Assembly: GCA_903877885.1 (NCBI GenBank) | Contig: CAIRFN010000005.1 | Location: forward strand, 17,956 to 81,955 | Origin: an uncultured Candidatus Berkelbacteria bacterium | GTDB lineage: Bacteria > Patescibacteriota > UBA1384 > UBA12157 | Length of the DNA stretch: 64,000 bases | Direction of reading: 5' to 3' | In this document: positions 11,345 to 49,649 of the stretch, piece after piece | Numbering within the stretch: position 1 is the first letter of the stretch | Layout of the letters: every line of letters begins with the position of its first letter | Made by a program: the position numbers and the translations under genes | Notes under the pieces: generated by a model | Told to the model about the DNA's origin: nothing | The model's input: the letters and a program-made list of their open reading frames with translations, nothing else | Database searches by the model: none

Positions 11345-11372
11345 AAAATAGTATCTGGTGTACAGAGTAACA

Positions 11373-13145: not shown

Positions 13146-14177
13146 TTAACTCGCTAATTTAAGAACTAATAAGTCGAGGGCCACTTTTGGCTCAACCTGA
13201 CCGGTTTTCATCGCCAAATCGTTTTCCATTAATTCATGGTAGATTTTTTTCAGTTCTATCATATTGTAATTCTTAATTAAATTTAGGCTTTTACCGGCCA
13301 CAAACGGATGCAATCCAGCCCGTTTCGACAGCTCCCACTGCGAATTTACTCCGCGCTCGGCAAAATCCATCGTAATTAACAGGTTCCGATATTGATAAAC
13401 AATCATCGACAAAATATAGAGTTCATTTTCGCCATTATCTAAAAGTCGGTGTAATTCGTATAATGATTTTTTGACGTTTCGACTAGCGACCGCGTCAACC
13501 AGAGCAAAAATATCGCTGGAAGTTTGCGGTTTAACCAAGAGTTCGATATTTTGAACTGTAATAATATTGTCATCCTCGAGCCGGTGTGAGTCTTTATCGA
13601 ACACCGACATCGGGGATCCAGATCCCGGATCCTGAAGCCTTCCGGTCCGGGATGACAGACCTTTAAAAGTTGCAAGTTTGGCAATTTCATTTCCTAACCG
13701 CCACAAATCGGCGCCAACATATTCAAATAATTTTTGAACACCATCAGATGTAATCGTACCATTTAATTTAGCAACTTCTTCGCGAATCCAGGTTTTTGCA
13801 CCTTGTTCATCAAGCGGTTTAAATTCTTGGGTTTTTTGTTTAGCTAATTTTTTGTAAAGCGATGTCCGTTTATCTGGCACGCCTGCTTCAGCAAAAACCA
13901 AAACGGTTGTTTCCGGGACTTTCGGCAAAAATTCGCCGATTTTTTCTTGTTCATCCTTTTTTCCTTCTAACAACAAATTTTCAATAATCACCAGCCGACT
14001 TTTGGCTAAAAATGGATAGGCCAAAATCTGCCGAATCATAAAATCGGCTTTAGTCGTCTTGCCGTCAATCACCGCTAAATTTGTGTCCCCTAAAGACGCG
14101 GAAATATACTTTTCCTTCATCTCTTTAATTTTTTGTTTTAGTCTGTAAGTATCCTCGCCAAAAAGAAATAATATCAT
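13146..14177 (-). CDS. holA: DNA polymerase III delta subunit-like (HolA)
   Basis: 343 aa. N-terminus MILFLFGEDTYRLKQKIKEMKEKY and overall delta-subunit layout. It carries an in-frame family-A element at 13568-13657. Confidence 0.65.
   Translation of the reverse strand: MILFLFGEDTYRLKQKIKEMKEKYISASLGDTNLAVIDGKTTKADFMIRQILAYPFLAKSRLVIIENLLLEGKKDEQEKIGEFLPKVPETTVLVFAEAGVPDKRTSLYKKLAKQKTQEFKPLDEQGAKTWIREEVAKLNGTITSDGVQKLFEYVGADLWRLGNEIAKLATFKGLSSRTGRLQDPGSGSPMSVFDKDSHRLEDDNIITVQNIELLVKPQTSSDIFALVDAVASRNVKKSLYELHRLLDNGENELYILSMIVYQYRNLLITMDFAERGVNSQWELSKRAGLHPFVAGKSLNLIKNYNMIELKKIYHELMENDLAMKTGQVEPKVALDLLVLKLAS
13568..13657. repeat. Family-A MITE-like palindromic element (tgtcatcctcgag...gggatgaca) inserted in frame in holA
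   Basis: Termini tgtcatcctcgagccgg.. and ..ccggtccgggatgaca. Translated through as ..RLQDPGSGSPMSVFDKDSHRLEDDN.. Confidence 0.8.
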
Positions 14178-14257
14178 GGTTTGAGTATATCTGATTTTCT
14201 TGACTTTTCAACCTTTTTACGCTACAATTTGGACATTCGAACCTTGGAGGAAAGTCG

Positions 14258-15735: not shown

Positions 15736-15826
15736 TGTCATCCTCGAGCCGGAGGGTACTCCGACATCAAGGATCCAGAAAATTCCTGGATCCCAGATCC
15801 TGAAGCCTTCCAATCTGGGATGACAT
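15736..15826. repeat. Family-A MITE-like element, intergenic copy
   Basis: tgtcatcctcgagccggagggtactccgacatcaaggatccag + aaaattc + ctggatcccagatcctgaagccttccaatctgggatgaca. Confidence 0.8.
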
Positions 15827-15831
15827 AAAAA

Positions 15832-16803
15832 TTAAAACAAGCTCAACCGATTATCTTCCCTATTAGATTTATGAATTCTGGGAATTAAGGATTTAAACCC
15901 GAGGTCTAAAAAGAGTTTTTCCACTTTTTCCTTATCAAAATCGTGAATTTTGGCATCTGATAATTTAAACTCGATCGGCGCATCTGAAACAATTTGTGAC
16001 AATTTTTGGCTTAAATATGCTTGATCTTTGTACTCAATTAATAAGGAAAGAACTTTTTTGGAAATTTTTAACTTTTCTGATAGTTTTTGAATTTTGTCAT
16101 CCTGAGCTTGCGAAGGAACTTTTTTAGATTCTTCACTACCGTTCAGAATGACATTATATAAATTATCAAGTGTTTGAAATTTCTCGATTAGATTGCTGGC
16201 CGTTTTTTCACCTATTCCTGGAACTCCGGGAATATTGTCCGAAGAGTCGCCTTTGAGCGCCTTTAGGTCAACAAATTGACTTGGATTAACATTATACCGC
16301 TCTTTGACTTTATTCTCATCGTACATGACCGCTTGCTGGACACCGCGCGCCATCGAATAAACCTTTGTACTCTGATCAATCAGCTGAAAAGTATCCGAGT
16401 CACCTGTCACAATAATGTTTTCAATTCCACTATCTTCTATCCCCTTTATTATCGTTGCGGCAATATCTTCGCCTTCATATCCTTCGGCCGAAACAATCGG
16501 AATATTCATGGTCTCCAACACTTTTTTGCAATATTGAATTTGCGGCACCAAATCATCAGGCATCGGTTTGCGCGTCGCTTTGTAATCAACATATTCCAAG
16601 TGCCGTTTGGTTGGTTTGGGTAAATCAAAACAAGCCACCAAGTATTCAGGTTGGAGTTCTTTAATGGCAGCAAGTAAAGCCGAGGCAAAACCATAGGCCG
16701 CGTTAATCGGATGACCATCGCGCGTCAAAGTCGGCGGAATACCATAGAATGCCCTAAAAATTAAAGCAAACGAATCAATTAAAACCAAACGATTTTTTAT
16801 CAT
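15832..16803 (-). CDS. 5'-3' exonuclease (Pol I N-terminal-type / FEN-like)
   Basis: 323 aa. N-terminus MIKNRLVLIDSFALIFRAFYGIP with the acidic metal-binding clusters typical of 5'-nuclease domains. It carries an in-frame family-B element. Confidence 0.85.
   Translation of the reverse strand: MIKNRLVLIDSFALIFRAFYGIPPTLTRDGHPINAAYGFASALLAAIKELQPEYLVACFDLPKPTKRHLEYVDYKATRKPMPDDLVPQIQYCKKVLETMNIPIVSAEGYEGEDIAATIIKGIEDSGIENIIVTGDSDTFQLIDQSTKVYSMARGVQQAVMYDENKVKERYNVNPSQFVDLKALKGDSSDNIPGVPGIGEKTASNLIEKFQTLDNLYNVILNGSEESKKVPSQAQDDKIQKLSEKLKISKKVLSLLIEYKDQAYLSQKLSQIVSDAPIEFKLSDAKIHDFDKEKVEKLFLDLGFKSLIPRIHKSNREDNRLSLF
16095..16153. repeat. Family-B palindromic element (tgtcatcctgagc...gttcagaatgaca) in frame in the 5'-exonuclease gene
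   Basis: tgtcatcctgagcttgcgaaggaacttttttagattcttcactaccgttcagaatgaca. Translated as ..PSQAQDDKIQ.. Confidence 0.8.
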
Positions 16804-16835
16804 TATGAATATACTTTAACACAGCTCTCTATACC

Positions 16836-17941: not shown

Positions 17942-19258
17942 CTATCCATCCATTCTCTTTAACAACGCGTCGCGAGCGATTTTGCGGTCAGACCAAGGAA
18001 TTTTCTTTTCGCCAACCACCATACATTCCTCGGCGCCTTTGCCGGTAATGAGAACTATATCATCTTTGTGAGCAATTTTAATAGCCTTTTCAATCGCCTC
18101 TTTGCGATCAAAAATCTGGAAAAAGTTCTCGTTTAAAACTTTGGGATTTTTGCTATCAGCGCCGCGAGGCACGCCGCCGGAGACTTCCTCGATAATTTTT
18201 TGAGCGTCCTCGGTATATGGATCTTCGTTCGTCACAATCACAATATCGGCAAATTTACCAGCTAAGGCGCCCAAGATTGGCCGTTTGGTTTTATCACGAT
18301 CGCCGCAAGAACCCAAAACCGAAATAATTCGAGCTTTTTTAGCCATATCCAAGGTTTGATAAACTTTCTCCAAAGCGTCTGGCGTATGAGCGTAATCAAT
18401 AATGACAGCAAAACTTTGGCCTATATCCACTTTTTCCATTCGACCTGGAACCACATCCATTTCTTCGAGTGCTTGTTTGGCCACATCCAAATGAATTTTT
18501 AAAGCATAGGCCACACAAATCGCAGCCAAAGCATTATAAATATTAAACTTGCCGGGCAAATTAGAATTAACCGCAATTTGACTGGTTGGAGTGACAATCG
18601 TAAACATTGAACCAGTTGGTTCTAGAATAATTTTTTTAGCTAAAATTTCAGGTCGAACCTGACGCGTGGTTTGAGCATTTTCAATACCGTAAGTGATAAT
18701 ATCGCGAGCTGGTAAAGCCGCAAGCTGATCAATTGTTTTTTCATCATCATTATTTAAAATATTAATCGTTTTGCCAGTCGAAAAAAGTTTGGTTTTAACC
18801 TTGCGATATTCCTCAAAAGTCTTATGATAATCCAGATGGTCGTGCGTCATATTGGTCATAATGGCAATCTGATAATTGATCCCATAAGTGCGATATTGGC
18901 TAATGGCGTGAGAAGAAGTTTCCAAAACCACCCAATGACAGCCAGCTTTAAGGCATCGACTCAAAAACTTTTGAACCGCAAATGGCGAGTCGGTGGTCAT
19001 TTTAGTCGTATTAACCCACTCTTCTTTACCAATCTTAAAATTAATCGTCGTGGCCATACCCACACGGTAATTGGCTTTTTCCAAAATTCTGGCAATCATA
19101 TTACAAGTCGTGGTTTTGCCGTTTGTACCAGTCACACCGATAATTTTGAGTTTTCGACCAGGAAAACCATAAATCATGGCCGCCAAAACGCCTCGGGCGA
19201 AATGCGTCCAAATGATAAATGATTCAGGTAAAATTGATTTAAGATAAGATTTAATCAT
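17942..19258 (-). CDS. murE: Mur ligase, MurE-like (UDP-MurNAc-L-Ala-D-Glu : diamino acid ligase) with a short N-terminal domain
   Basis: GVTGTNGKTTT P-loop, DHLDYH, GKFNIYNALAA, GRMEKV, IIDYAHTPDALEKV and ITGKGAE motifs. Confidence 0.75.
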   Translation of the reverse strand: MIKSYLKSILPESFIIWTHFARGVLAAMIYGFPGRKLKIIGVTGTNGKTTTCNMIARILEKANYRVGMATTINFKIGKEEWVNTTKMTTDSPFAVQKFLSRCLKAGCHWVVLETSSHAISQYRTYGINYQIAIMTNMTHDHLDYHKTFEEYRKVKTKLFSTGKTINILNNDDEKTIDQLAALPARDIITYGIENAQTTRQVRPEILAKKIILEPTGSMFTIVTPTSQIAVNSNLPGKFNIYNALAAICVAYALKIHLDVAKQALEEMDVVPGRMEKVDIGQSFAVIIDYAHTPDALEKVYQTLDMAKKARIISVLGSCGDRDKTKRPILGALAGKFADIVIVTNEDPYTEDAQKIIEEVSGGVPRGADSKNPKVLNENFFQIFDRKEAIEKAIKIAHKDDIVLITGKGAEECMVVGEKKIPWSDRKIARDALLKRMDG

Positions 19259-20217
19259 TTCCTTCTCATCTTCTCGATAAACTTAAATAAATTATACCAG
19301 CATTTGCTGTAAATAATATCCCAACTTCCGACTGTTTGGTATTTGATGCCGCCAAATTGCTCTTTAAATTGAGTGATACCGGCGTATTTATGTTTTTTGT
19401 CATTCTGAGCTTGCGAAGAATCTATAGATCCTTCACTGCGTTCAGGATGACTATTAAATGGCGCTACTGCTAATAAATCATAAAACTTGCAACCTTTGGC
19501 TTTGGCGATTTTAATCGCCTCCCAGTGCATTAGGTATGGTGCCATTACATTGCGATATTTTGATAAGCTTGCTCCATAAAGATAAGTCGCCATTTCGTCA
19601 AAAAAAGTAAAAATTCCAGCCGCCACGGGAATATCATTATATTTAACAACCAAAAGTTCAACGGAATTTATTTCTTTTAAGGTTTGAATTAATTTAGCAA
19701 AATATTTTTTTGGTCTGATTTGAAAACCATCTCGGCTAGCCGTTTCCTTAAAAATTTCGTAAAATTCGTCAATATTTTGTGATTTTTCAACAACTAAACC
19801 ATGTTTTTGCCCTACTTTAATATTATATCGGCCTTTTGGTTTCATTTTGGCCAAAATTTCTTCTTCAGATTTTGTTATATCCACAATTTGACGATATTCT
19901 GGCTGAATCTCTTCAAACGATTTAATGAGATGATTTTTCTTCAAAATTGTTGTAATTTTTCCACCAAAAACCGAGTTTTTTTGATTCAAAAAATCTAACC
20001 TTAAAAATATCGAGTGGGATTTTTTAGAAATTTCTTTAATTTTTGGTAAAAATTTGGGGAAATTGATTTTGTAAAAATCGACTTCCGGCGAGTACAGAAA
20101 ACTAAAACCCAGTGGTAATGGTTTTTCCAAAACTAAAACCTCATCAACCCAATGGGCTTTCCAACCTTGACTTTCGCGAAGCGCAGCCCATTCCTTTGTT
20201 TGTAGAATTGATTTCAT
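19255..20217 (-). CDS. FemAB-family peptidoglycan interpeptide aminoacyltransferase (FemX-like)
   Basis: 320 aa. N-terminus MKSILQTKEWAALRESQGW and overall Fem-family layout. It overlaps murE by 4 nt. It carries an in-frame family-B element. Confidence 0.65.
   Translation of the reverse strand: MKSILQTKEWAALRESQGWKAHWVDEVLVLEKPLPLGFSFLYSPEVDFYKINFPKFLPKIKEISKKSHSIFLRLDFLNQKNSVFGGKITTILKKNHLIKSFEEIQPEYRQIVDITKSEEEILAKMKPKGRYNIKVGQKHGLVVEKSQNIDEFYEIFKETASRDGFQIRPKKYFAKLIQTLKEINSVELLVVKYNDIPVAAGIFTFFDEMATYLYGASLSKYRNVMAPYLMHWEAIKIAKAKGCKFYDLLAVAPFNSHPERSEGSIDSSQAQNDKKHKYAGITQFKEQFGGIKYQTVGSWDIIYSKCWYNLFKFIEKMRRK
19398..19452. repeat. Family-B palindromic element in frame in the femX-like gene
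   Basis: tgtcattctgagcttgcgaagaatctatagatccttcactgcgttcaggatgac. Translated as ..HPERSEGSIDSSQAQND.. Confidence 0.8.
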
Positions 20218-20246: not shown

Positions 20247-21482
20247 ATGATGAAAGAAAAAATGAAAATATTAGCCATTGAATCAAGTTGTGACGAAACC
20301 GCGGCCGCCGTTATTGAAAATAATAACGGTGAGATTAAGATACATTCAAACATAATTTCTAGTCAAATTGATATTCACAAACAATTTGGTGGCGTTTTTC
20401 CCGAAATTGCTTCGCGTGCTCATGCCGAAAATATTATTCCGGTGATTAAAGAATCTTTAATTAATAGTATTGATGATGTCGATCTAATCGCTGTCACTGA
20501 CGGACCAGGTTTAATCGGTTCGCTTTTGGTTGGCGTCAATGTAGCCAAAACCTTGAGTTTCGCAAATAATATTCCGATCTTACCAATCAACCACTGGCTT
20601 GGTCATATCTATTCCTGTTTTACCGATGATAAAAATTTACCTCGATTCCCTCTTCTCGCCCTTATTGTTTCCGGTGGTCATACTGGTTTGGTGTTGATGA
20701 AAAGTCATACCGAGTACATTCAAATCGGCGCTACACTTGATGACGCCGCTGGCGAAGCTTTTGATAAAGTAGCAAAACTCTTAGAATTAGGTTATCCTGG
20801 CGGACCGGCGATTTCAGCTGCGGCTGAAGAATATAAAAAAGAATGTCATTCCGGTCCAGATGGTAATACTGGAACCGGAATCCAGGCCTGGATTCCCGAT
20901 GTCGAGTTGCCACTCGGCTCGAGAATGACAATTTCCTTTCCGAGAGCCATGCTTAATTCTAAAGATTATAATTTAATGTCAATTAAATTTCCGCGGGCCA
21001 TGATGCAATCAGGGAACTATAATTTCTCATTTTCAGGGTTAAAAACTTCTGTACTAAACAAAGTTCGAACTTTAACTGAAAATTGGAAATTGAGAACTGA
21101 AAATTTTGCCCCCGTAGTTGCCTATGAATTTCAACAATGCGTCATTGATATTTTAATTGGTAAAACTTTGAAAGCGGCTGAAGAATTTAAGCCAAAATCA
21201 ATTCTTCTTTGCGGCGGCGTTTCAGCAAATAAGGAATTAAGAGAACAAATGAAAAAAGCTATTTTGTCATTCCGGACCCCTCCTGTCATTCCGGACCGGT
21301 TGGCAACAGGATCCGGAATCCAGGAAAAAACGAATGACAAGATTAATTTTTTCTGTCCGCCCATCGAATTAACCGGCGATAACGCGGCCATGATCGGTAT
21401 TGCCGCAGCCTATCAAATCAACGCTGGCGTTAAACCAACTACATATAATAATGTAAATGCGAACTCAAATTTGAAATTGTAA
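20247..21482 (+). CDS. tsaD: tRNA N6-adenosine threonylcarbamoyltransferase TsaD (Kae1/Gcp family)
   Basis: (M)KILAIESSCDETAAAVIEN.. N-terminus with the His metal site. At 411 aa it is longer than typical, because of two in-frame element insertions plus a 17-codon tandem duplication. An alternative start exists at the ATG at 20262. Confidence 0.9.
   Translation: MMKEKMKILAIESSCDETAAAVIENNNGEIKIHSNIISSQIDIHKQFGGVFPEIASRAHAENIIPVIKESLINSIDDVDLIAVTDGPGLIGSLLVGVNVAKTLSFANNIPILPINHWLGHIYSCFTDDKNLPRFPLLALIVSGGHTGLVLMKSHTEYIQIGATLDDAAGEAFDKVAKLLELGYPGGPAISAAAEEYKKECHSGPDGNTGTGIQAWIPDVELPLGSRMTISFPRAMLNSKDYNLMSIKFPRAMMQSGNYNFSFSGLKTSVLNKVRTLTENWKLRTENFAPVVAYEFQQCVIDILIGKTLKAAEEFKPKSILLCGGVSANKELREQMKKAILSFRTPPVIPDRLATGSGIQEKTNDKINFFCPPIELTGDNAAMIGIAAAYQINAGVKPTTYNNVNANSNLKL
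20844..20930. repeat. Family-A MITE-like element in frame in tsaD (copy 1)
   Basis: tgtcattccggtccagatggtaatactggaaccggaatccag gc ctggattcccgatgtcgagttgccactcggctcgagaatgaca. Translated as ..CHSGPDGNTGTGIQAWIPDVELPLGSRMT.. Confidence 0.8.
21263..21340. repeat. Family-A MITE-like element in frame in tsaD (copy 2, with a duplicated left terminus)
   Basis: ttgtcattccggacccctcc tgtcattccggaccggttggcaacaggatccggaatccag gaaaaaacgaatgacaa. Translated as ..ILSFRTPPVIPDRLATGSGIQEKTNDK.. Confidence 0.75.
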
Positions 21483-21489
21483 CCTTAAT

Positions 21490-21880
21490 GTACACCCTGG
21501 AAGTGTACATTGGTTTGAACTAATATAAAGAGAACGCCCCTGGCAAGCCAGGGGCGGTAGGAAAGATGGATAGGGATTGGGAAAGAAAAGAATGAAAAGT
21601 AGGCGTTGCGATGCCTCGAGTGATGAAGAGATGTGCTAGACTTAGAACGAGTGGACAGATGCGGTCTGAACGAAGCCTTCTTGCGAAGGACAAGTGAACG
21701 TAGAGCCCTAAGGCTCGGACAGTGATGGTCTAGGCGGCAGCCCGAAATGCTGGCGAGTCGCAACCGAGAACACCAAAGAGGTGTCGAACATGACAAAGCA
21801 ACGCCTTATAAATATCGTAGTTCTCACTAAAACCTTTGTCAAGACCTTAAAAATCTGATAAGATAAAATAAATTAATGAG
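21490..21880. ncRNA. Candidate structured non-coding RNA in a GC-rich block with many tetraloop hairpins, between tsaD and valS
   Basis: No plausible ORF on either strand; the only long frame is S/R/L-rich junk. Hairpins at tgtacaccctggaagtgtaca, cccctggcaagccagggg, gccttcttgcgaaggc and gagccctaaggctc. GC is clearly elevated against the flanks. Identity unknown. Confidence 0.3.
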
Positions 21881-21888
21881 AAAATATT

Positions 21889-24039
21889 ATGCAAGAATTA
21901 CCATCAAATTACAATTATAAAGAAACTGAAGACAAAATTTATGCGCTGTGGGAAGAAGCCGGCGCGTTTAAACCAGTTATTGATCCTAATCAAAAACCAT
22001 ATACGATTGTGATTCCGCCACCAAATGTGACTGGTTCTCTTCATATGGGTCATGCTTTAAATAACACAATTCAAGATATTTTAATTCGTCGCTCTCGGAT
22101 GCGTGGCGTGCCAACTCTATGGATTCCCGGAACTGATCATGCCGGTATTGCTACTCAAAATGTGGTGGAAAAAAAGTTGGCTAAAGAAGGCAAAACTCGT
22201 CAAGAACTTGGGCGCGAAGAGTTCACCAAAGAAGTTTGGGATTGGGTTGATCAATATGGCAACACTATTATTGGACAGCTCAAGAAAATGGGTTGTTCTT
22301 GCGATTGGTCCAGACAGCGTTTTACCATGGATGAAGGCTATTCAGAAGCGGTTAAAGTCGCGTTCAAAAATTACTATGATAAGGGTTATATTTATCAAGG
22401 TGAACGAGTGATCAACTGGTGTACCCGTTGTCAAACTGCCTTATCTGATATCGAAGTCGAACATATTGATCAAAACGCTAAACTATATTTTTTTAAATAT
22501 GATAAAAATTTTCCGATCACCATTGCCACTACGCGACCAGAGACAAAGCTTGGCGATACAGGTGTAGCGGTCAATCCGAAAGACAAAAGATATCAGGATT
22601 ACATTGGTAAAACTTTCAAGGTTAATTTTTGCGGTGTCGACCGCGAGATTCGGGTTTTTGCTGACATTAGTATTGATATAACCTTTGGCACTGGCGCCGT
22701 CGGAGTCACTCCAGCGCATTCTTTGGTTGACTATGAAATGGCCGAAAAAAATGGCTTGGATATTATTAAAGTGATTGATCAATATGGGAAAATGACCAAA
22801 GAAGCGGGAACAGAATTTGAAGGTTTGAAAGCAACTGAAGCGCAAGCCAAAGTCATCGAAATGTTGGAAAAAGCTGGGCTGATGGAAAAAGTGGAAGAAA
22901 TCCAAAACGCGATCAGTGTGTGTTATCGCTGTAATCGACCGATTGAGCCTCAACCGTCAAAACAATGGTTTTTAAAGATGTCGGAATTAGCAAAACCAGC
23001 GATTGAAGCGGTTAAATCTGGTCAAATTAAATTCACACCAGACCGTTGGACCAAAGTTTATTTAGACTGGATGGAAAATTTGCGCGACTGGTGCATTTCT
23101 CGCCAAATCTGGTGGGGGCACACCATTCCAATTGAAGGCGAAACTGATGTTTTGGACACTTGGTTTTCGTCAGCCTTGTGGCCGTTTGCCACACTTGGTT
23201 GGCCCAATAAAACTGAAGACCTAAAATATTTTTATCCGACCACCACACTTTCCACTGCCCGCGATATTATTTATCTGTGGGTGGCACGAATGATTTTTTC
23301 AGGGCTTGAATTTACCAACGAAATTCCATTTTCACAGGTTTATATTCATCCAACGGTTTTCAATAAAGAAGGTAAACGCATGTCCAAATCTTTGGGCACC
23401 GGCGTCGATCCTTTGGAACTGATCGAGAAATACGGTGCCGATGCCACGCGATTTGGTCTTACCTATATTAATACCGGGATTCAAGATTTGAAATTTGACG
23501 AAGAAGCTATTGGTGCTGGCAAAAAATTTGCCAATAAGTTGTGGAATATCACCAGATTCATGTTGATGAGCATTTGTCATTCCGGTCCGGATGGCTCCGG
23601 AACCGGAATCCAGGAAAATGATAATCTGGATTCCAGATCAGGTTGCCAACCAGTCTGGAATGACAAGATGGAACCAAGAACTGAAGCCGATAAAATCATT
23701 CTTGAAAAACTTAATGCCGTTATTAAATCAACTGACAAAAATCTTGATGAATTTAAATTTGGCCAAGCGGCGCATGATTTGTATGATTTCGTCTGGCACG
23801 ATTTGGCCGACGTATATATAGAAGAAAGCAAAGTGACCGCGAACGGTCATCCCGAGCCGAAGTCCGGCGAGGGAACCCCTGATTTTTCAGTATTACTTTA
23901 TGTAATAGTAACTTCGATTAAACTTTTGCACCCGATTATGCCGTTTGTAACAGAAGAAATCTGGCAAAAACTCTACGAAGATAAATTAGTTGATGAAAGA
24001 ATGCTGATTACGGCAAAATGGCCAAAAGCACAAGAATAG
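21889..24039 (+). CDS. valS: Valyl-tRNA synthetase (compact form)
   Basis: PPPNVTGSLHMGHAL HIGH region, KMSKS (GKRMSKSLG) and anticodon-binding region. Carries an in-frame family-A element at 23575-23665. Confidence 0.9.
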   Translation: MQELPSNYNYKETEDKIYALWEEAGAFKPVIDPNQKPYTIVIPPPNVTGSLHMGHALNNTIQDILIRRSRMRGVPTLWIPGTDHAGIATQNVVEKKLAKEGKTRQELGREEFTKEVWDWVDQYGNTIIGQLKKMGCSCDWSRQRFTMDEGYSEAVKVAFKNYYDKGYIYQGERVINWCTRCQTALSDIEVEHIDQNAKLYFFKYDKNFPITIATTRPETKLGDTGVAVNPKDKRYQDYIGKTFKVNFCGVDREIRVFADISIDITFGTGAVGVTPAHSLVDYEMAEKNGLDIIKVIDQYGKMTKEAGTEFEGLKATEAQAKVIEMLEKAGLMEKVEEIQNAISVCYRCNRPIEPQPSKQWFLKMSELAKPAIEAVKSGQIKFTPDRWTKVYLDWMENLRDWCISRQIWWGHTIPIEGETDVLDTWFSSALWPFATLGWPNKTEDLKYFYPTTTLSTARDIIYLWVARMIFSGLEFTNEIPFSQVYIHPTVFNKEGKRMSKSLGTGVDPLELIEKYGADATRFGLTYINTGIQDLKFDEEAIGAGKKFANKLWNITRFMLMSICHSGPDGSGTGIQENDNLDSRSGCQPVWNDKMEPRTEADKIILEKLNAVIKSTDKNLDEFKFGQAAHDLYDFVWHDLADVYIEESKVTANGHPEPKSGEGTPDFSVLLYVIVTSIKLLHPIMPFVTEEIWQKLYEDKLVDERMLITAKWPKAQE
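23575..23665. repeat. Family-A MITE-like element in frame in valS
   Basis: tgtcattccggtccggatggctccggaaccggaatccag...ctggattccagatcaggttgccaaccagtctggaatgaca. Translated as ..CHSGPDGSGTGIQENDNLDSRSGCQPVWNDK.. Confidence 0.8.
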
Positions 24040-24074: not shown

Positions 24075-24451
24075 TGTCATTCCAGACCGGCCGGAGGCAG
24101 GATCTGGAATCCAGAATAAAATGAATAATTATTATGTGTATATTTTGACTAGCAGAAGAAACGGCACTTTATATATTGGCGTAACTAATGATCTGATTAA
24201 AAGAATATGGGAACATAAAAACCATAGTAAAAAAGGATTTACAGAAAAATATAACATTTGCCAATTGATATACTTTGAGCAAACTAATAATATAAACTCC
24301 GCTATTAATAGAGAAAAACAATTAAAATCATGGAATAGAAAATGGAAACTTGACTTAATTGAGAAAGTCAATCCTGATTGGAAAGATTTATATCAAGAAT
24401 TGTTGTAACTGGATTCCCGATGTCGGATGCCATCCGACTCGAGAATGACAA
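24075..24451 (+). mobile_element. Full-length family-A element carrying a GIY-YIG nuclease ORF between its two terminal modules
   Basis: Left module tgtcattccagaccggccggaggcaggatctggaatccag (24075-24114). ORF 24121-24408. Right module ctggattcccgatgtcggatgccatccgactcgagaatgaca (24410-24451). The short MITE copies (e.g. 38811-38904) are these two modules joined directly. Confidence 0.75.
24121..24408 (+). CDS. GIY-YIG nuclease family protein (UPF0213/YhbQ-like, about 95 aa)
   Basis: ..YYVYILTSRRNGTLYIGVTNDLIKRIWEHKN.. with the GIY...YIG motifs. The start is trimmed to the ATG at 24121. The track frame is open from 24061 through the left terminal module. Confidence 0.85.
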   Translation: MNNYYVYILTSRRNGTLYIGVTNDLIKRIWEHKNHSKKGFTEKYNICQLIYFEQTNNINSAINREKQLKSWNRKWKLDLIEKVNPDWKDLYQELL

Positions 24452-31046: not shown

Positions 31047-31086
31047 AATCAACTGGATTTGACAGATTATTCCCCCTTGACAACAG

Positions 31087-38810: not shown

Positions 38811-38904
38811 TGTCATTCCAGACCGGACGGCGTCAGGATCTGGAATCTAGGATAATTGTTTCTGGATTCCCGATGTCGGATTGCCATCCGACTCGGGAAT
38901 GACA
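38811..38904. repeat. Family-A MITE-like element, intergenic reference copy
   Basis: tgtcattccagaccggacggcgtcaggatctggaatctag gataattgttt ctggattcccgatgtcggattgccatccgactcgggaatgaca. The whole element is a long imperfect palindrome. Confidence 0.85.
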
Positions 38905-38921
38905 AAGAAAAATATAACAAA

Positions 38922-40070
38922 TTATTTATTAACTTCTTTCTTCAGTTCTTCCACTTTATCCGTTCTCTCCCAAGGTAAATCTAATTCTGGTCTACCGAAA
39001 TGGCCATAGGCGGCAATTTTTTGGTAGATTGGTTTTCGAAGATCTAAGGCTTGGATAATCATCCCTGGTCGTAAATCAAAAACTTTACTCACCGCTTGAG
39101 CGATTTTATCGTCTTCAATGGTGCCAGTACCAAACGTATCAATTCGCACCGACATTGGTTCAGCTCGACCGATGGCATAAGCAATCTGCACTTCACAGCG
39201 TTCGGCTAATTTTGCGGCAACGATATTCTTGGCCACCCATCTGGCCGCATAGCTACCCGACCGATCAACTTTACTCGGATCTTTTCCAGAGAAACAACCG
39301 CCACCGTGACGCGCATAGCCACCATAAGTATCAACAATAATTTTGCGGCCGGTCAGTCCAGTATCACCTTGCGGCCCACCAATCACAAACCGACCGGTGG
39401 TGTTGACATAGTAGTTTGTATTTTGAAGCAAGGATTTAGGGATAACTTTTTCAATTACTTTCTCGATAATTTCTTTTTTTAAGATCGATGTTTTAATATT
39501 TTCATCATGTTGTGCCGCAATTAAAACCGATTCGATGCGGACTGGTTTGTCGCCATCATATTCAACTGTAACCTGGCTTTTGCCGTCTGGTCGCAAGCCT
39601 TTGACAATCCCCTTTTTTCGAACTTCAGCCAAGCGTTGGCAAAGTTTGTGAGCCAAAACAATTGGCAAAGGCATTAATTCTTTGGTTTCGCGACAAGCAT
39701 AACCAAACATCAAACCTTGATCACCGGCGCCTAGATTTTCCAAGTCTTCGACCAAAGGACAGTCCTTTTGTTCCTTTAAGGACTGTCCTTTACTAAACGC
39801 ATCAACACCCTGTGCAATATCGGCTGATTGTTCCTTAACCGCCACCATTACACCGGAAGTTTCCCAGTGAAAACCATATTCGGCATTTGTATAGCCAATT
39901 TGTTTAATGACGTTGCGAGCGATTTTCGGAATATCGACATATGTTTTAGTGGTAATTTCTCCAGCGATAATACAAACGCCGTTGGTCAGCAATGTTTCGC
40001 AAGCGACTCGTCCTTGCGGATCGTCAGTTAAAATTGCATCGAGTACCGCATCACTAATCTGATCAGCCAT
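38922..40070 (-). CDS. metK: S-adenosylmethionine synthetase
   Basis: [35 protein letters not shown] and the rest of the canonical MetK sequence. Carries an in-frame REP-like insertion at 39765-39800 (..[17 protein letters not shown]..). Confidence 0.95.
39765..39800. repeat. REP-like palindromic element inserted in frame inside metK
   Basis: aaggacagtcctt-ttgttccttt-aaggactgtcctt. It adds about 12-16 residues relative to the conserved MetK loop before GAGDQG. Confidence 0.8.
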
Positions 40071-40183: not shown

Positions 40184-40277
40184 TGTCATTCCAGACCGGA
40201 TGGCATCAGGATCTGGAATCCAGAGTTAATTATTTCTGGATTCTTGATGTCGGAGTACCCTCCGGCTCGAGAATGAC
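40184..40277. repeat. Family-A MITE-like element in the metK 5' leader, between the riboswitch terminator and the start codon
   Basis: tgtcattccagaccggatggcatcaggatctggaatccag...ctggattcttgatgtcggagtaccctccggctcgagaatgaca. Confidence 0.8.
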
Positions 40278-40292
40278 ATAAAAAAACAAAAA

Positions 40293-40412
40293 TCACCGCA
40301 AGCGGTGAAATATATAAAAACATCTTTCCCGCAAGGGGTCGGAGGTAGCACCTAAATTAATGGGTTGCTGGTGGATCATCGGGCCGAATCCCTCACCACA
40401 CTCTTGATATTA
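40293..40412 (-). ncRNA. SAM-I (S-box) riboswitch with an intrinsic terminator, upstream of metK
   Basis: Minus-strand read: AUCAAGAGUGUGGUGAGGGAUUCGGCCCGAUGAUCCACCAGCAACC...GGUGCUACCUCCGAC. This matches the conserved SAM-I core AGAGnGGnGGAGGGAnnGGCCCGAUGAnnCCnnGCAACC...GGUGCUA. It is followed by a terminator tcaccgcttgcggtga plus a T-run at 40280-40308. Confidence 0.8.
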
Positions 40413-40528
40413 AAATTAATTTTTAACTAAATTTATCATATTATAACCATCTAACTTTTGTCAAACTCTTGCCTGGAAACAATTTTTGCTTTAAGATGTA
40501 AATATTAAATTTATATTTTAGGAGCAAA

Positions 40529-45136: not shown

Positions 45137-45527
45137 TGTCATCCTCGAGCCGGTTTGAGCTTTGTCGAAAACCGACATCAAGGATCCATCAAAATAAAAA
45201 GCTATTTCGTTTACATTTTAGCCAGTCAGAAAAACGGAACATTATATATCGGTGTTACAAATGATATTATAAGAAGGATTTGGGAGCACAAAAATAAAGC
45301 TATTCAAGGTTTTACAGATAAATATAGAATTGATAAATTAGTTTATTTCGAAGAAACACCAGATATTAATTCAGCTATTAAGAGAGAAAAACAATTAAAA
45401 TTATGGAGCCGTTCCTGGAAAATAGATTTGATAGAAAAGAATAATCCTGATTGGAAAGATTTATATCAAGATTTGTTATAATGGATCCTTGATGTTGGAG
45501 CGCTTCGCTTCCAACTCGAGGATGACA
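45137..45527 (+). mobile_element. Second full-length family-A element carrying a GIY-YIG ORF between its terminal modules, inserted between atpA and atpG
   Basis: Left module tgtcatcctcgagccggtttgagctttgtcgaaaaccgacatcaaggatcca. ORF to 45481. Right module tggatccttgatgttggagcgcttcgcttccaactcgaggatgaca. Confidence 0.75.
45155..45481 (+). CDS. GIY-YIG nuclease family protein (second copy)
   Basis: ..YFVYILASQKNGTLYIGVTNDIIRRIWEHKN..REKQLKLWSRSWK.. The frame is open from a TTG inside the left terminal module. There is no ATG near the conserved N-terminus, so the start is uncertain. Confidence 0.75.
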   Translation: MSFVENRHQGSIKIKSYFVYILASQKNGTLYIGVTNDIIRRIWEHKNKAIQGFTDKYRIDKLVYFEETPDINSAIKREKQLKLWSRSWKIDLIEKNNPDWKDLYQDLL

Positions 45528-45958: not shown

Positions 45959-46025
45959 TTCGTTCCCTCCAACAAAAATCTATCAGAAGTATACCATAAT
46001 AAGCATTAAAAGTCAATAGAATATT

Positions 46026-47066
46026 ATGCCAAGTACACAAGAATTTCGTAGAAGAATTAAATCGGTCAGTTCGACCAAACAGATTACCAAAGCAATGGAA
46101 ATGATTGCTTCTATTAAGATGCAAAAATCTGTCAAAACTATTGCCCAGGCTCGAGCCTATATCCAAAACGCATGGAATATTTTACATTTACTGTCTGAAA
46201 AAATATTAAGCGACGATCACGCGCTGATTAATCCTAAAGATCATGCCAAAAAAACAGCCGTGATTTTAATTACTTCTGACCGCGGTTTATGCGGTTCATA
46301 TAATTCAGAAGTGATCAAGAAGCTAACATCATTCAAAAATGTCATCCTCGAGACGGAGGGTACTCCGACATCAAGGATCCAGGACCTGGATTCCAGATCT
46401 GGTTCCCAACCAGTCTGGAATGACAATACGATTGATATCATTGCCATCGGTAAAGTCGGCGCCGCGTTTGTTAACAGATATAAAATCGGCAAACTGATCG
46501 CTGAATTTAAAGGTTTTGAAAATAATATTTCCGTTGAAGATGTCATTCCGATTTCCAAACTGACGAATGGTGAATATATGGCTGGAAATTATGACAAAGT
46601 GGTAGTGATTTATTCTCATTTCATTTCTTCGCTTAAACAAGTCCCGGTCGTCAAACAAATTTTGCCAATTGTCGAAGATCATATCGATCATCCGGAATTA
46701 TGGGAAGGAAATAATGTCATCCTCGAGCCGGAGGGTACTCCGACATCAAGGATCCAGGACCTGGATTCCCGATCCGGAGGCCATCCGGTCGAGAATGACA
46801 AAAACAATACTGAATACAAATTTGAACCCAATCCTGATGAAGTTTTTGATGGCGTCTTGCGACAAATTTTACGCACCCAAATTTTCGGTGCCATTTTAGA
46901 AGCCAACGCTTCTGAACATTCGGCCCGTATGGTGGCCATGAAAAATGCCACCGACAATGCCACCGATTTAGTTGATGAATTAAAATTAGTATATAACAGC
47001 ATCCGCCAAGGAAACATCACTTCGGAAATCGCCGAAATTAGTGGTGCCGCCGAGGCGATGAAATAA
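46026..47066 (+). CDS. atpG: F0F1 ATP synthase subunit gamma (lengthened by two in-frame MITE insertions)
   Basis: Conserved N-terminus (..RRRIKSVSSTKQITKAMEMIASIKMQK..) and C-terminus (..NSIRQGNITSEIAEISGAAEAM). At 346 aa it is longer than typical. Confidence 0.9.
   Translation: MPSTQEFRRRIKSVSSTKQITKAMEMIASIKMQKSVKTIAQARAYIQNAWNILHLLSEKILSDDHALINPKDHAKKTAVILITSDRGLCGSYNSEVIKKLTSFKNVILETEGTPTSRIQDLDSRSGSQPVWNDNTIDIIAIGKVGAAFVNRYKIGKLIAEFKGFENNISVEDVIPISKLTNGEYMAGNYDKVVVIYSHFISSLKQVPVVKQILPIVEDHIDHPELWEGNNVILEPEGTPTSRIQDLDSRSGGHPVENDKNNTEYKFEPNPDEVFDGVLRQILRTQIFGAILEANASEHSARMVAMKNATDNATDLVDELKLVYNSIRQGNITSEIAEISGAAEAMK
46340..46425. repeat. Family-A MITE-like element in frame in atpG (copy 1)
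   Basis: tgtcatcctcgagacggagggtactccgacatcaaggatccag gac ctggattccagatctggttcccaaccagtctggaatgaca. Translated as ..VILETEGTPTSRIQDLDSRSGSQPVWND.. Confidence 0.8.
46715..46800. repeat. Family-A MITE-like element in frame in atpG (copy 2)
   Basis: tgtcatcctcgagccggagggtactccgacatcaaggatccag gac ctggattcccgatccggaggccatccggtcgagaatgaca. Translated as ..VILEPEGTPTSRIQDLDSRSGGHPVEND.. Confidence 0.8.
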
Positions 47067-49558: not shown

Positions 49559-49649
49559 TGTCATTCTCGACCGGACGGCCTCCGGATCGGGAATCTAGAA
49601 ATATAATCCTGGATCCCAGATCCTGTTTGACAACCGGTCTGGGATGACA
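49559..49649. repeat. Family-A MITE-like element, intergenic
   Basis: tgtcattctcgaccggacggcctccggatcgggaatctag...cctggatcccagatcctgtttgacaaccggtctgggatgaca. Confidence 0.8.

Follow-up and report, generated by a model that had tools for sequence, protein, structure and literature searches.

How does an essential gene come to carry two palindromic elements within its reading frame and stay open? This question was raised by the tsaD gene in a 64,000-nucleotide (nt) stretch of contig CAIRFN010000005.1 (assembly GCA_903877885.1; an uncultured Candidatus Berkelbacteria bacterium), the whole of which was analyzed and is referred to below as the window. A first-pass annotation had described two elements, of the MITE type (miniature transposable elements with inverted repeats), that interrupt conserved TsaD sequence in frame, and had likened them to the Rickettsia palindromic elements (RPEs), a parallel that proved apt. 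What it overlooked are full-length, nuclease-encoding copies of the same family, which place the family in the Ssn nuclease/SRM hairpin system. We consider it likely that the tsaD segments are derivatives of Ssn units that lack the open reading frame (ORF) of these units, lie in frame, are translated as tolerated loops, and were spread by Ssn.

The ORF at 20247..21482 (plus strand) is an intact TsaD of 411 amino acids (aa), and both insert peptides quoted in the first-pass annotation are present in it exactly. It matched Pfam family PF00814 at 3e-81 (273 bits) and solved bacterial TsaD chains in the PDB with E values of 1.4e-69 to 1.6e-60. For comparison we used 118 close TsaD orthologues, all Patescibacteria-type and 329 to 513 aa long. 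All 56 of the 56 columns that are invariant across this set are preserved in the window TsaD, including the metal-binding H116 and H120 (HxxxH) and D378, the C-terminal Asp of GDNAAM. The surplus of the protein amounts to 72 residues, with 29 contributed by element 1, 17 by a tandem duplication, and ~25 by element 2. The two elements had been held to account for the extra length; this applies to 29 plus ~25 aa, and the further 17 aa come from the duplication, which had gone unnoticed.

Element 1 lies at 20844..20930 (plus strand), exactly where it had been placed. It is 87 nt long and encodes 29 codons in phase 0, corresponding to residues 200-228 (CHSG...SRMT), and its left hairpin (20844-20885) and right hairpin (20888-20930, in inverted orientation) form a complete ORF-less pair. 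Element 2 was likewise confirmed as an insertion, and its ends, formerly set at 21263-21340, were revised to 21265..21339 (plus strand) by its TGTCAT/ATGACA termini. These 75 nt encode approximately residues 340-364 (LSFRT...TNDK) in a reading phase that differs from that of element 1 (LSF...NDK), and they comprise a 14-nt left-end duplicate (21265-21278), an intact hairpin (21284-21323), and, on the right, the terminus only (GAATGACA, 21332-21339). Element 2 is thus a decayed, older half-element. Directly 3′ of element 1, 51 nt of native sequence that codes for I-x-FPRAM..YN are duplicated in tandem and have diverged (20931..21032, plus strand); copy 1 (20931-20981, ISFPRAMLNSKDYNLMS) is the extra one and copy 2 (20982-21032, IKFPRAMMQSGNYNFSF) aligns to the orthologues. 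The two copies are identical at 30 of 51 nt versus a mean of 15.8 for adjacent 51-mers of tsaD, which is the top-scoring position in the gene, and none of the orthologues in the alignment has the duplication; it might have been left as a scar when the insertion was repaired, or slippage unrelated to the insertion might have produced it. The elements are GC-rich, as had been noted, with a GC content of 0.51-0.54 in element 1 and 0.46-0.48 in element 2 versus ~0.33-0.40 in the remainder of tsaD. From the flanks of site 1, the empty-site junction is predicted to read ...GAATATAAAAAAGAA/ATTTCCTTTCC..., and the tryptic peptides predicted inside or across the TsaD inserts are ECHSGPDGNTGTGIQAWIPDVELPLGSR, MTISFPR, TPPVIPDR, and LATGSGIQEK.

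Alignments with structures and with orthologues both showed that otherwise conserved TsaD sequence is interrupted at the two sites and continues in frame. The PDB alignments cover only query residues 6-198, 246/248-338, and 367-405, and residues ~199-245 and 339-366 have no counterpart in TsaD structures of 327 to 354 aa. The segments are not native conserved parts of TsaD, since solved structures do without both and stretches of at least 8 aa are present in only 29 (site 1) and 11 (site 2) of the 118 orthologues. Indels in this set cluster after reference positions ~27, 74, 127, 203, 280, and 343, the two insert sites included. An AlphaFold (AF2) model was computed from the 118-sequence alignment (mean predicted local distance difference test [pLDDT] score, 88), and Foldseek matched it to TsaD-TsaB structures with target-normalized template modeling scores of 0.85 to 0.87. 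The model places the site 1 insert between helix 185-201 and the short helices of the FPR region and the site 2 insert between helix 329-341 and strand 367-369. The core has a pLDDT of >90, residues 209-236 fall below 50, and residues 342-366 are coil with a pLDDT of 63 to 75. The mapping onto structure that the first-pass annotation had called for thus showed that both inserts occupy loops between secondary-structure elements, which are indel hot spots among Patescibacteria orthologues, and by the model the inserts are predicted to be disordered.

The two elements are members of a dispersed palindromic family, as had been proposed. The pattern TGTCATYC-N20-50-GRATCYAG has 22 matches in the window, whereas 0.01 is expected by chance. 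Short elements have the layout TGTC-hairpin-CCAG-(0-20 nt)-CTGG-hairpin-GACA, and in 24 of 24 hairpins the palindrome has an unvarying GTC on its 5′ side and an unvarying C on its 3′ side. Covariation in the outer 8-bp stem is seen at pair 7 (C-G/T-A), pair 10 (C-G/A-T/G-C), and pair 12 (A-T/T-A). When folded as single-stranded DNA, the two tsaD elements gave z scores of −4.4 and −4.5, within a family range of −4.4 to −5.3, and none of 200 shuffles folded as well as the elements. Element 1 has both termini and both hairpins in common with intergenic and ssn-flanking copies, and at 86% and 77% identity its right hairpin matches two intergenic copies.

Ten short copies of 75 to 95 nt with TGTCATYC/GRATGACA ends were found in the window. 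Besides the tsaD pair, hairpin-pair elements lie in frame in holA, which encodes DNA polymerase III delta (element 13568..13657, minus strand; ORF 13146..14207, minus strand), in valS (23575..23665, plus strand; ORF 21889..24039), between the regions for the catalytic and anticodon-binding domains, and twice in atpG (46340..46425 and 46715..46800, both plus strand; ORF 46020..47066). Intergenic copies, to which no strand applies, are located at 15736..15825, 38811..38904, 40184..40278, and 49559..49649. The hairpins at 15736, 46340, and 46715 are 98 to 100% identical to one another, and the left hairpin of the 46715..46800 copy matches intergenic 15736-15778 at 100% over 43 nt; such identity at three loci points to recent copying or gene conversion. 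A second subfamily, made of short-hairpin pairs (TGTCATTCTGAGC...GTTCAGGATGAC), occurs in frame (SHPERSEGS...AQNDK) in a femAB-like ORF (19398..19451, minus strand; ORF 19255..20217) and, also in frame, in the ORF of a 5′-3′ exonuclease (16095..16153, minus strand; ORF 15832..16815). These six genes, with two copies each in tsaD and atpG, hold at least eight in-frame, stop-free copies, and about half of the window copies are intragenic and in frame. We also noticed a further GC-rich patch in valS at 23846-23878 (GGTCATCCCGAGCCGAAGTCCGGCGAGGGAAC, peptide GHPEPKSGEGT), where the orthologue of the relative L084 is 6 aa shorter and unrelated in sequence; the patch is probably a decayed single hairpin, in frame.

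L084 is syntenic with the window, and its TsaD and ValRS share ~70% and 78% identity over the aligned residues, respectively. In-frame insertions are found in L084 at the same sites of tsaD (site 2), valS, holA, the exonuclease gene, and femAB, and at the DNA level remnants of GTCAT/ATGAC-type elements are visible in the first four of these. The L084 hairpins have decayed differently from the window copies, and the ORFs are still open. At tsaD site 2, the L084 gene contains only one hairpin (TGTCATTCCGGACCAG...CTGGAATCTAG), placed at the same codon, with a compensatory change of CCGG/CCGG (window) versus CCAG/CTGG (L084). The tsaD site 2 insertion is old. Since in-frame copies occur in six genes and the L084 ORFs remain open despite decay, we infer that the inserts are very probably translated, as disordered loops. 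The assertion that the elements are stop-free in most frames was overstated: the intragenic copies are open in three of six frames each (18 of 36) versus 4 of 24 for the intergenic copies, and chance alone would leave a 29-codon frame of this GC content open in 28% of cases. These counts provide weak evidence for the suggested selection for translational tolerance.

The relationship of these elements to a nuclease system was revealed by two full-length units. Unit 1 (24075..24450, plus strand) consists of a hairpin, an Ssn-family GIY-YIG ORF at 24118-24408, and an inverted hairpin, and unit 2 (45137..45527, plus strand) has the same order, with the conserved part of its GIY-YIG ORF at 45191-45481. 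Both ORFs are 95 aa long and match PF01541 at 1e-14 and 1e-16, and the termini and hairpins of both units are the same as those of the short elements. The window nuclease ORF is 54% identical (E value, 7e-27) to the Neisseria gonorrhoeae ssnA locus, which is flanked by NTS repeats there, and 65 to 76% identical to homologues from many phyla. Among 80 homologous loci from many phyla (57 to 72% identity), 54 have a GTCAT upstream and an ATGAC downstream, neither of them more than 110 nt away, and TGTCATTCCCGCGAAAGCGGGAATCCAG ... CTGGATTCCCGC..GCGGGAATGACA flanks are seen at many of these loci.

Ssn proteins are single-domain GIY-YIG nucleases of ~94 aa (CDD cd10448), and their targets are hairpin repeats named NTS (CGTCATTCCCGCGMAVGCGGGAATCYRG), or SRM in general (Chenal et al. 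2025, PMC11893778). The SRM type consists of GTC, a palindrome ATYC...GRAT, and then C, with the GTC and C nucleotides critical for cutting and binding; the Neisseria and Wolbachia homologues act on single-stranded DNA only and cut just 5′ of the hairpin (PMC11893778). More than 300 SRMs were counted in Rickettsia and Wolbachia genomes, and NTS-ssnA-NTS was said to resemble an insertion sequence, a remark that concerned architecture only; Patescibacteria and in-frame insertion are not mentioned (PMC11893778). From its sequence, the window family is a long-stem variant of this nuclease/hairpin system. In the 38811..38904 copy, the central spacer still carries remnants of the ssn ORF borders, with 84% identity to 24392-24428. 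Given the same ends and these ORF-border remnants, the short copies look like internal-deletion derivatives, and the tsaD inserts look like non-autonomous, ORF-less hairpin-pair derivatives of the Ssn unit.

Related elements recur in the TsaD loops of other lineages. P0002, the nearest orthologue to have both inserts, has the site 1 element at identical boundaries (E/CHSG...SGMT/I), as known from its protein; L084 lacks this element. In L127 (P0082), the same loop holds a different GTCAT...GGATGAC element, and in at least eight orthologues or lineages GTCAT...ATGAC-type elements of various subfamilies end right before the I-x-F/L-P-R motif at site 1. The native TsaD codons, A-TTY-CCG-CGN, look similar to ATTCCCGCG, the canonical stem arm of SRMs. 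The position of the element ends before this motif, along with the SRM-like codons, may reflect a target preference. In addition, a TsaD loop of L128 contains a palindrome (GCCACTCAAAG...CTTTGACGTGGC) that lacks GTCAT ends, and peptides repeated at two or three loops within one TsaD were seen in P0010, P0025, P0034, P0082, and L128; P0082, for instance, has LTAHRLQTTENKTAV at two loops, and P0025 has SEVRSPK at three. The repeated peptides and the L128 palindrome therefore show that Patescibacteria TsaD also takes up in-frame insertions from several other repeat families.

For 25 years, selfish DNA that lies in frame within essential genes has been a Rickettsia curiosity, and we know of no mobilizing partner or enzyme described for RPEs. 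In the window, a candidate mobilizing gene, ssn, lies between identical ends. RPE peptides may back-translate to GTCAT-palindrome motifs, which, together with the more than 300 SRMs counted in Rickettsia, serves as a lead only. RPEs were described by Ogata et al. (2000, 2002), and in the outline given by the review PMC10969869 they are, like the window elements, short, multicopy palindromic elements found in frame in unrelated housekeeping genes, with many copies per genome. In both cases the extra peptide segments are compatible with the fold; they are translated in RPEs, as that review summarizes (PMC10969869), and probably so here. The differences, on the same outline, are the host, which is a member of the Patescibacteria here, and the size, 75 to 95 nt versus ~100 to 150 nt for RPEs. 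With the Ssn/SRM system, including the dRS3 repeat of Neisseria, the window family shares the single-domain GIY-YIG protein of ~95 aa, the inverted hairpins that bracket its gene, the many hairpin copies, the invariant GTC 5′ and C 3′ of the palindrome, and an ATTCC...GGAAT core. It differs in having stems of 12 to 15 bp versus ~7 bp, longer loops, tight inverted hairpin pairs that look like ORF-deleted units, and about half of its copies intragenic in frame versus 2% of NTS in Neisseria meningitidis (PMC11893778).

Two further groups of elements offer partial parallels. The REP/BIME repeats with their RAYT partners (IS200/IS605-like Y1 transposases) also feature hairpin repeats, often paired in inverted orientation, a small nuclease gene with these hairpins on either side, and presumed action on single-stranded DNA. 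However, REPs are extragenic by definition, whereas the window elements are frequently intragenic, and the enzyme here is of the GIY-YIG rather than the HUH/Y1 type, so that no covalent intermediate is expected. Classical MITEs (Correia, ERIC, and Nezha) are likewise small, noncoding, and multicopy, have terminal inverted repeats, and seem to derive from a longer coding element by internal deletion, and occasional in-frame fusions are known (PMC10969869). In contrast, no target-site duplication accompanies the window elements, their partner encodes no known transposase of the DDE, serine, or tyrosine class, and in place of simple terminal inverted repeats, a pair of structured hairpins makes up the whole element. 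A classical MITE mechanism is disfavored because of the missing target-site duplication and the lack of a covalent intermediate in GIY-YIG enzymes. The literature that we searched contained no link between RPEs and GIY-YIG/SsnA or Ssn/SRM and, for Patescibacteria or the Candidate Phyla Radiation, nothing relevant on MITEs or on palindromic elements in frame. Among known cases, the elements come closest to RPEs in function and to Ssn/SRM in mechanism and membership.

How might such copies have arisen and persisted? Ssn would bind to hairpins in single-stranded DNA and cleave immediately 5′ of them, as do its Neisseria and Wolbachia homologues (PMC11893778), so that short copies would be spread in trans, and host repair or recombination would complete the copying. 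In essential genes, only in-frame, stop-free insertions in permissive loops would survive selection, and these would be transcribed and translated as disordered surface loops, rich in G, P, S, T, and D, that TsaD tolerates. For the step of spreading in trans by Ssn with host repair completing the event, we see the chances as evenly balanced.

Several points weigh against this account. GIY-YIG nucleases form no covalent intermediate, and therefore a GIY-YIG enzyme cannot by itself rejoin DNA; to our knowledge, no transposition mechanism has been described for Ssn units. A search at 12 copies for target-site duplications revealed no flanking direct repeat, the flanks being merely A/T-rich, and no empty-site allele was found. 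Mobility is read from the copy number and from the 98-100% identical hairpins at three loci, and translation of the inserts is read from long-term ORF conservation. The ORF of unit 2 has ATA where its homologues have an ATG start, and its sole in-frame start is a TTG at 45155, inside the left hairpin; this nuclease copy may be inactive or may be translated with a hairpin-encoded N-terminal extension. The published SRM string, HGTCWYN(0-2)YYVSBRHN(0-5)WNVSBRGN(0-2)RNCYNB, had 0 matches on either strand of the window because the stems and loops are longer here, which shows a longer variant and is no sign of unrelatedness; long-stem hairpins would escape any scan that uses this string. Finally, a metagenome scan for the window hairpin subfamily yielded 41 related stretches, most of which looked intergenic by a crude open-frame heuristic. 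The few that were flagged as intragenic were mostly on GC-rich contigs, where chance gives long frames, and frequent intragenic insertion may be a local feature of this genome. The elements had no match in Rfam. Peptide searches for relatives of the inserts were uninformative: phmmer with a 30-aa insert peptide gave 0 matches at an E value of ≤0.001 among 1.84 billion representatives, the query being too short and too variable, and a 60-aa concatenate of inserts, too short or variable to inform, returned no candidates from a protein database.

Could the inserts be something other than translated elements? Repeats are a classic cause of metagenome misassembly, and a chimeric repeat collapse might fake an in-frame insertion. 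However, contigs from Logan ERR4193205, ENA ERZ18625109, and ENA ERZ27313079, three data sets that differ in sample and assembler, are 100% identical over 3.2 to 5.2 kb spanning tsaD, and the identical TsaD protein is present on 12 contigs. An assembly or frameshift artefact, which the first-pass annotation had allowed for, is therefore excluded by the agreement of three independent assemblies, and we regard its probability as practically nil. The segments might alternatively be native, lineage-specific loops that merely resemble repeats, or the gene might be a decaying pseudogene. The lengths of Patescibacteria TsaD do vary widely (329 to 513 aa), with many unrelated loop inserts; yet the termini and hairpins that element 1 shares with intergenic and ssn-flanking copies argue against native loops, and the 411 open codons, the 56 invariant columns kept, and the confident AF2 core argue against a pseudogene, so that this explanation is largely refuted and appears highly improbable. 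Only slightly less improbable is removal or skipping of the inserts before a protein of normal length is made, whether by intron-like excision, intein-like splicing, or ribosomal bypassing. Strong hairpins could in principle promote bypassing, and GC-rich palindromic inserts are bypassed in the mitochondria of Magnusiomyces. Nevertheless, every intragenic copy keeps the phase of its host gene and has no stop codon in that frame, properties that removal would not call for. A removal mechanism would also require the element ends, whereas the ORF is still open where an orthologous copy has lost one end or one hairpin. Moreover, Rfam at the gathering threshold detected a SAM (S-adenosylmethionine) riboswitch only and no intron in the window, the inserts of 25 to 29 aa are far below intein size, and Pfam found TsaD-type domains only in the protein, with no intein or Hint domain.

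The main rival accepts the elements and their nuclease but reverses what was selected: the intragenic hairpins would be kept in a domesticated cis role as Ssn targets, with the peptide loops as a by-product. They might tag essential genes for the cutting of incoming single-stranded DNA during natural transformation or steer local recombination, as has been proposed for the NTS-gene-NTS arrangement of Neisseria. Consistent with this, the hairpins at orthologous sites are foldable in two lineages, with the compensatory change at tsaD site 2 described above, ORF 38922..40070 is flanked by elements on both sides, and NTS flanking a gene lower the transformation of that gene (PMC11893778). But many orthologous copies are visibly decaying, the right hairpin having been lost from both element 2 and the L084 copy, gene conversion among copies can equally maintain hairpins, and merely 2% of N. 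meningitidis NTS are intragenic (PMC11893778). The role would also be carried over by analogy from a function in Neisseria, not in Patescibacteria. We therefore judge a domesticated role unlikely, although better placed than the explanations weighed above, and retain the reading of the tsaD segments as translated, ORF-less derivatives of Ssn units.

Other features of the window deserve mention. The minus strand carries a SAM riboswitch (40317-40413) with its terminator-like hairpin, followed by the element 40184-40278 in the leader of ORF 38922..40070, and the element 38811-38904 lies just past the stop codon of this ORF, so that the gene is bracketed in the manner of the Neisseria NTS-gene-NTS arrangement. 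The spacer between tsaD and valS (21485-21800) has a GC content of 0.45 to 0.59, a strong G skew on the plus strand, and, on the minus strand at ~21525-21560, a terminator-like hairpin (GCCCCTGGCTTGCCAGGGGC) followed by a T-rich run. It is poorly conserved in L084, and neither an Rfam match nor, with ARAGORN, a tRNA or transfer-messenger RNA was found in it; the spacer could be a new small RNA gene on the minus strand. A separate palindromic family, AAAGGACAGTCCTT-N-AAGGACTGTCCTTT, unrelated to the GTCAT family, is represented by six copies of 46 nt each at 11372, 15691, 37752, 39754, 61460, and 61823. Three copies, 50 nt each, of a repeat that resembles a promoter, CTCTTGACAAAT...TATGGTATATT, lie at 31066, 34340, and 36769; its −35 and extended −10 hexamers are good.

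Taken together, these results extend an RPE-like in-frame phenomenon to a distant, genome-reduced phylum, with candidate parent units inside one 64-kb stretch that encode nucleases of a family characterized biochemically in 2025 (PMC11893778). Two literatures are thereby linked, one on RPE-like protein-coding palindromes and the other on Ssn/SRM hairpins, and with parent and derivative side by side, the origin of protein-coding palindromes and the mobility of Ssn units become testable. In practical terms, such inserts inflate protein length, break domain matches, and are a possible source of error in the annotation and phylogenomics of lineages that are uncultured. They also offer a possible mechanism for many unexplained loop insertions in Patescibacteria housekeeping proteins. 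A broader proposal, which we advance tentatively and with more doubt than confidence, is that Ssn units are truly mobile and that their ORF-less derivatives are a general source of RPE-type in-frame peptides, which together with other palindromic families recolonize the same few permissive loops in Patescibacteria housekeeping proteins; the same enzyme family may mobilize the RPEs of Rickettsia. If this were true, repeated loop colonization would explain much of the length inflation of Patescibacteria housekeeping proteins.

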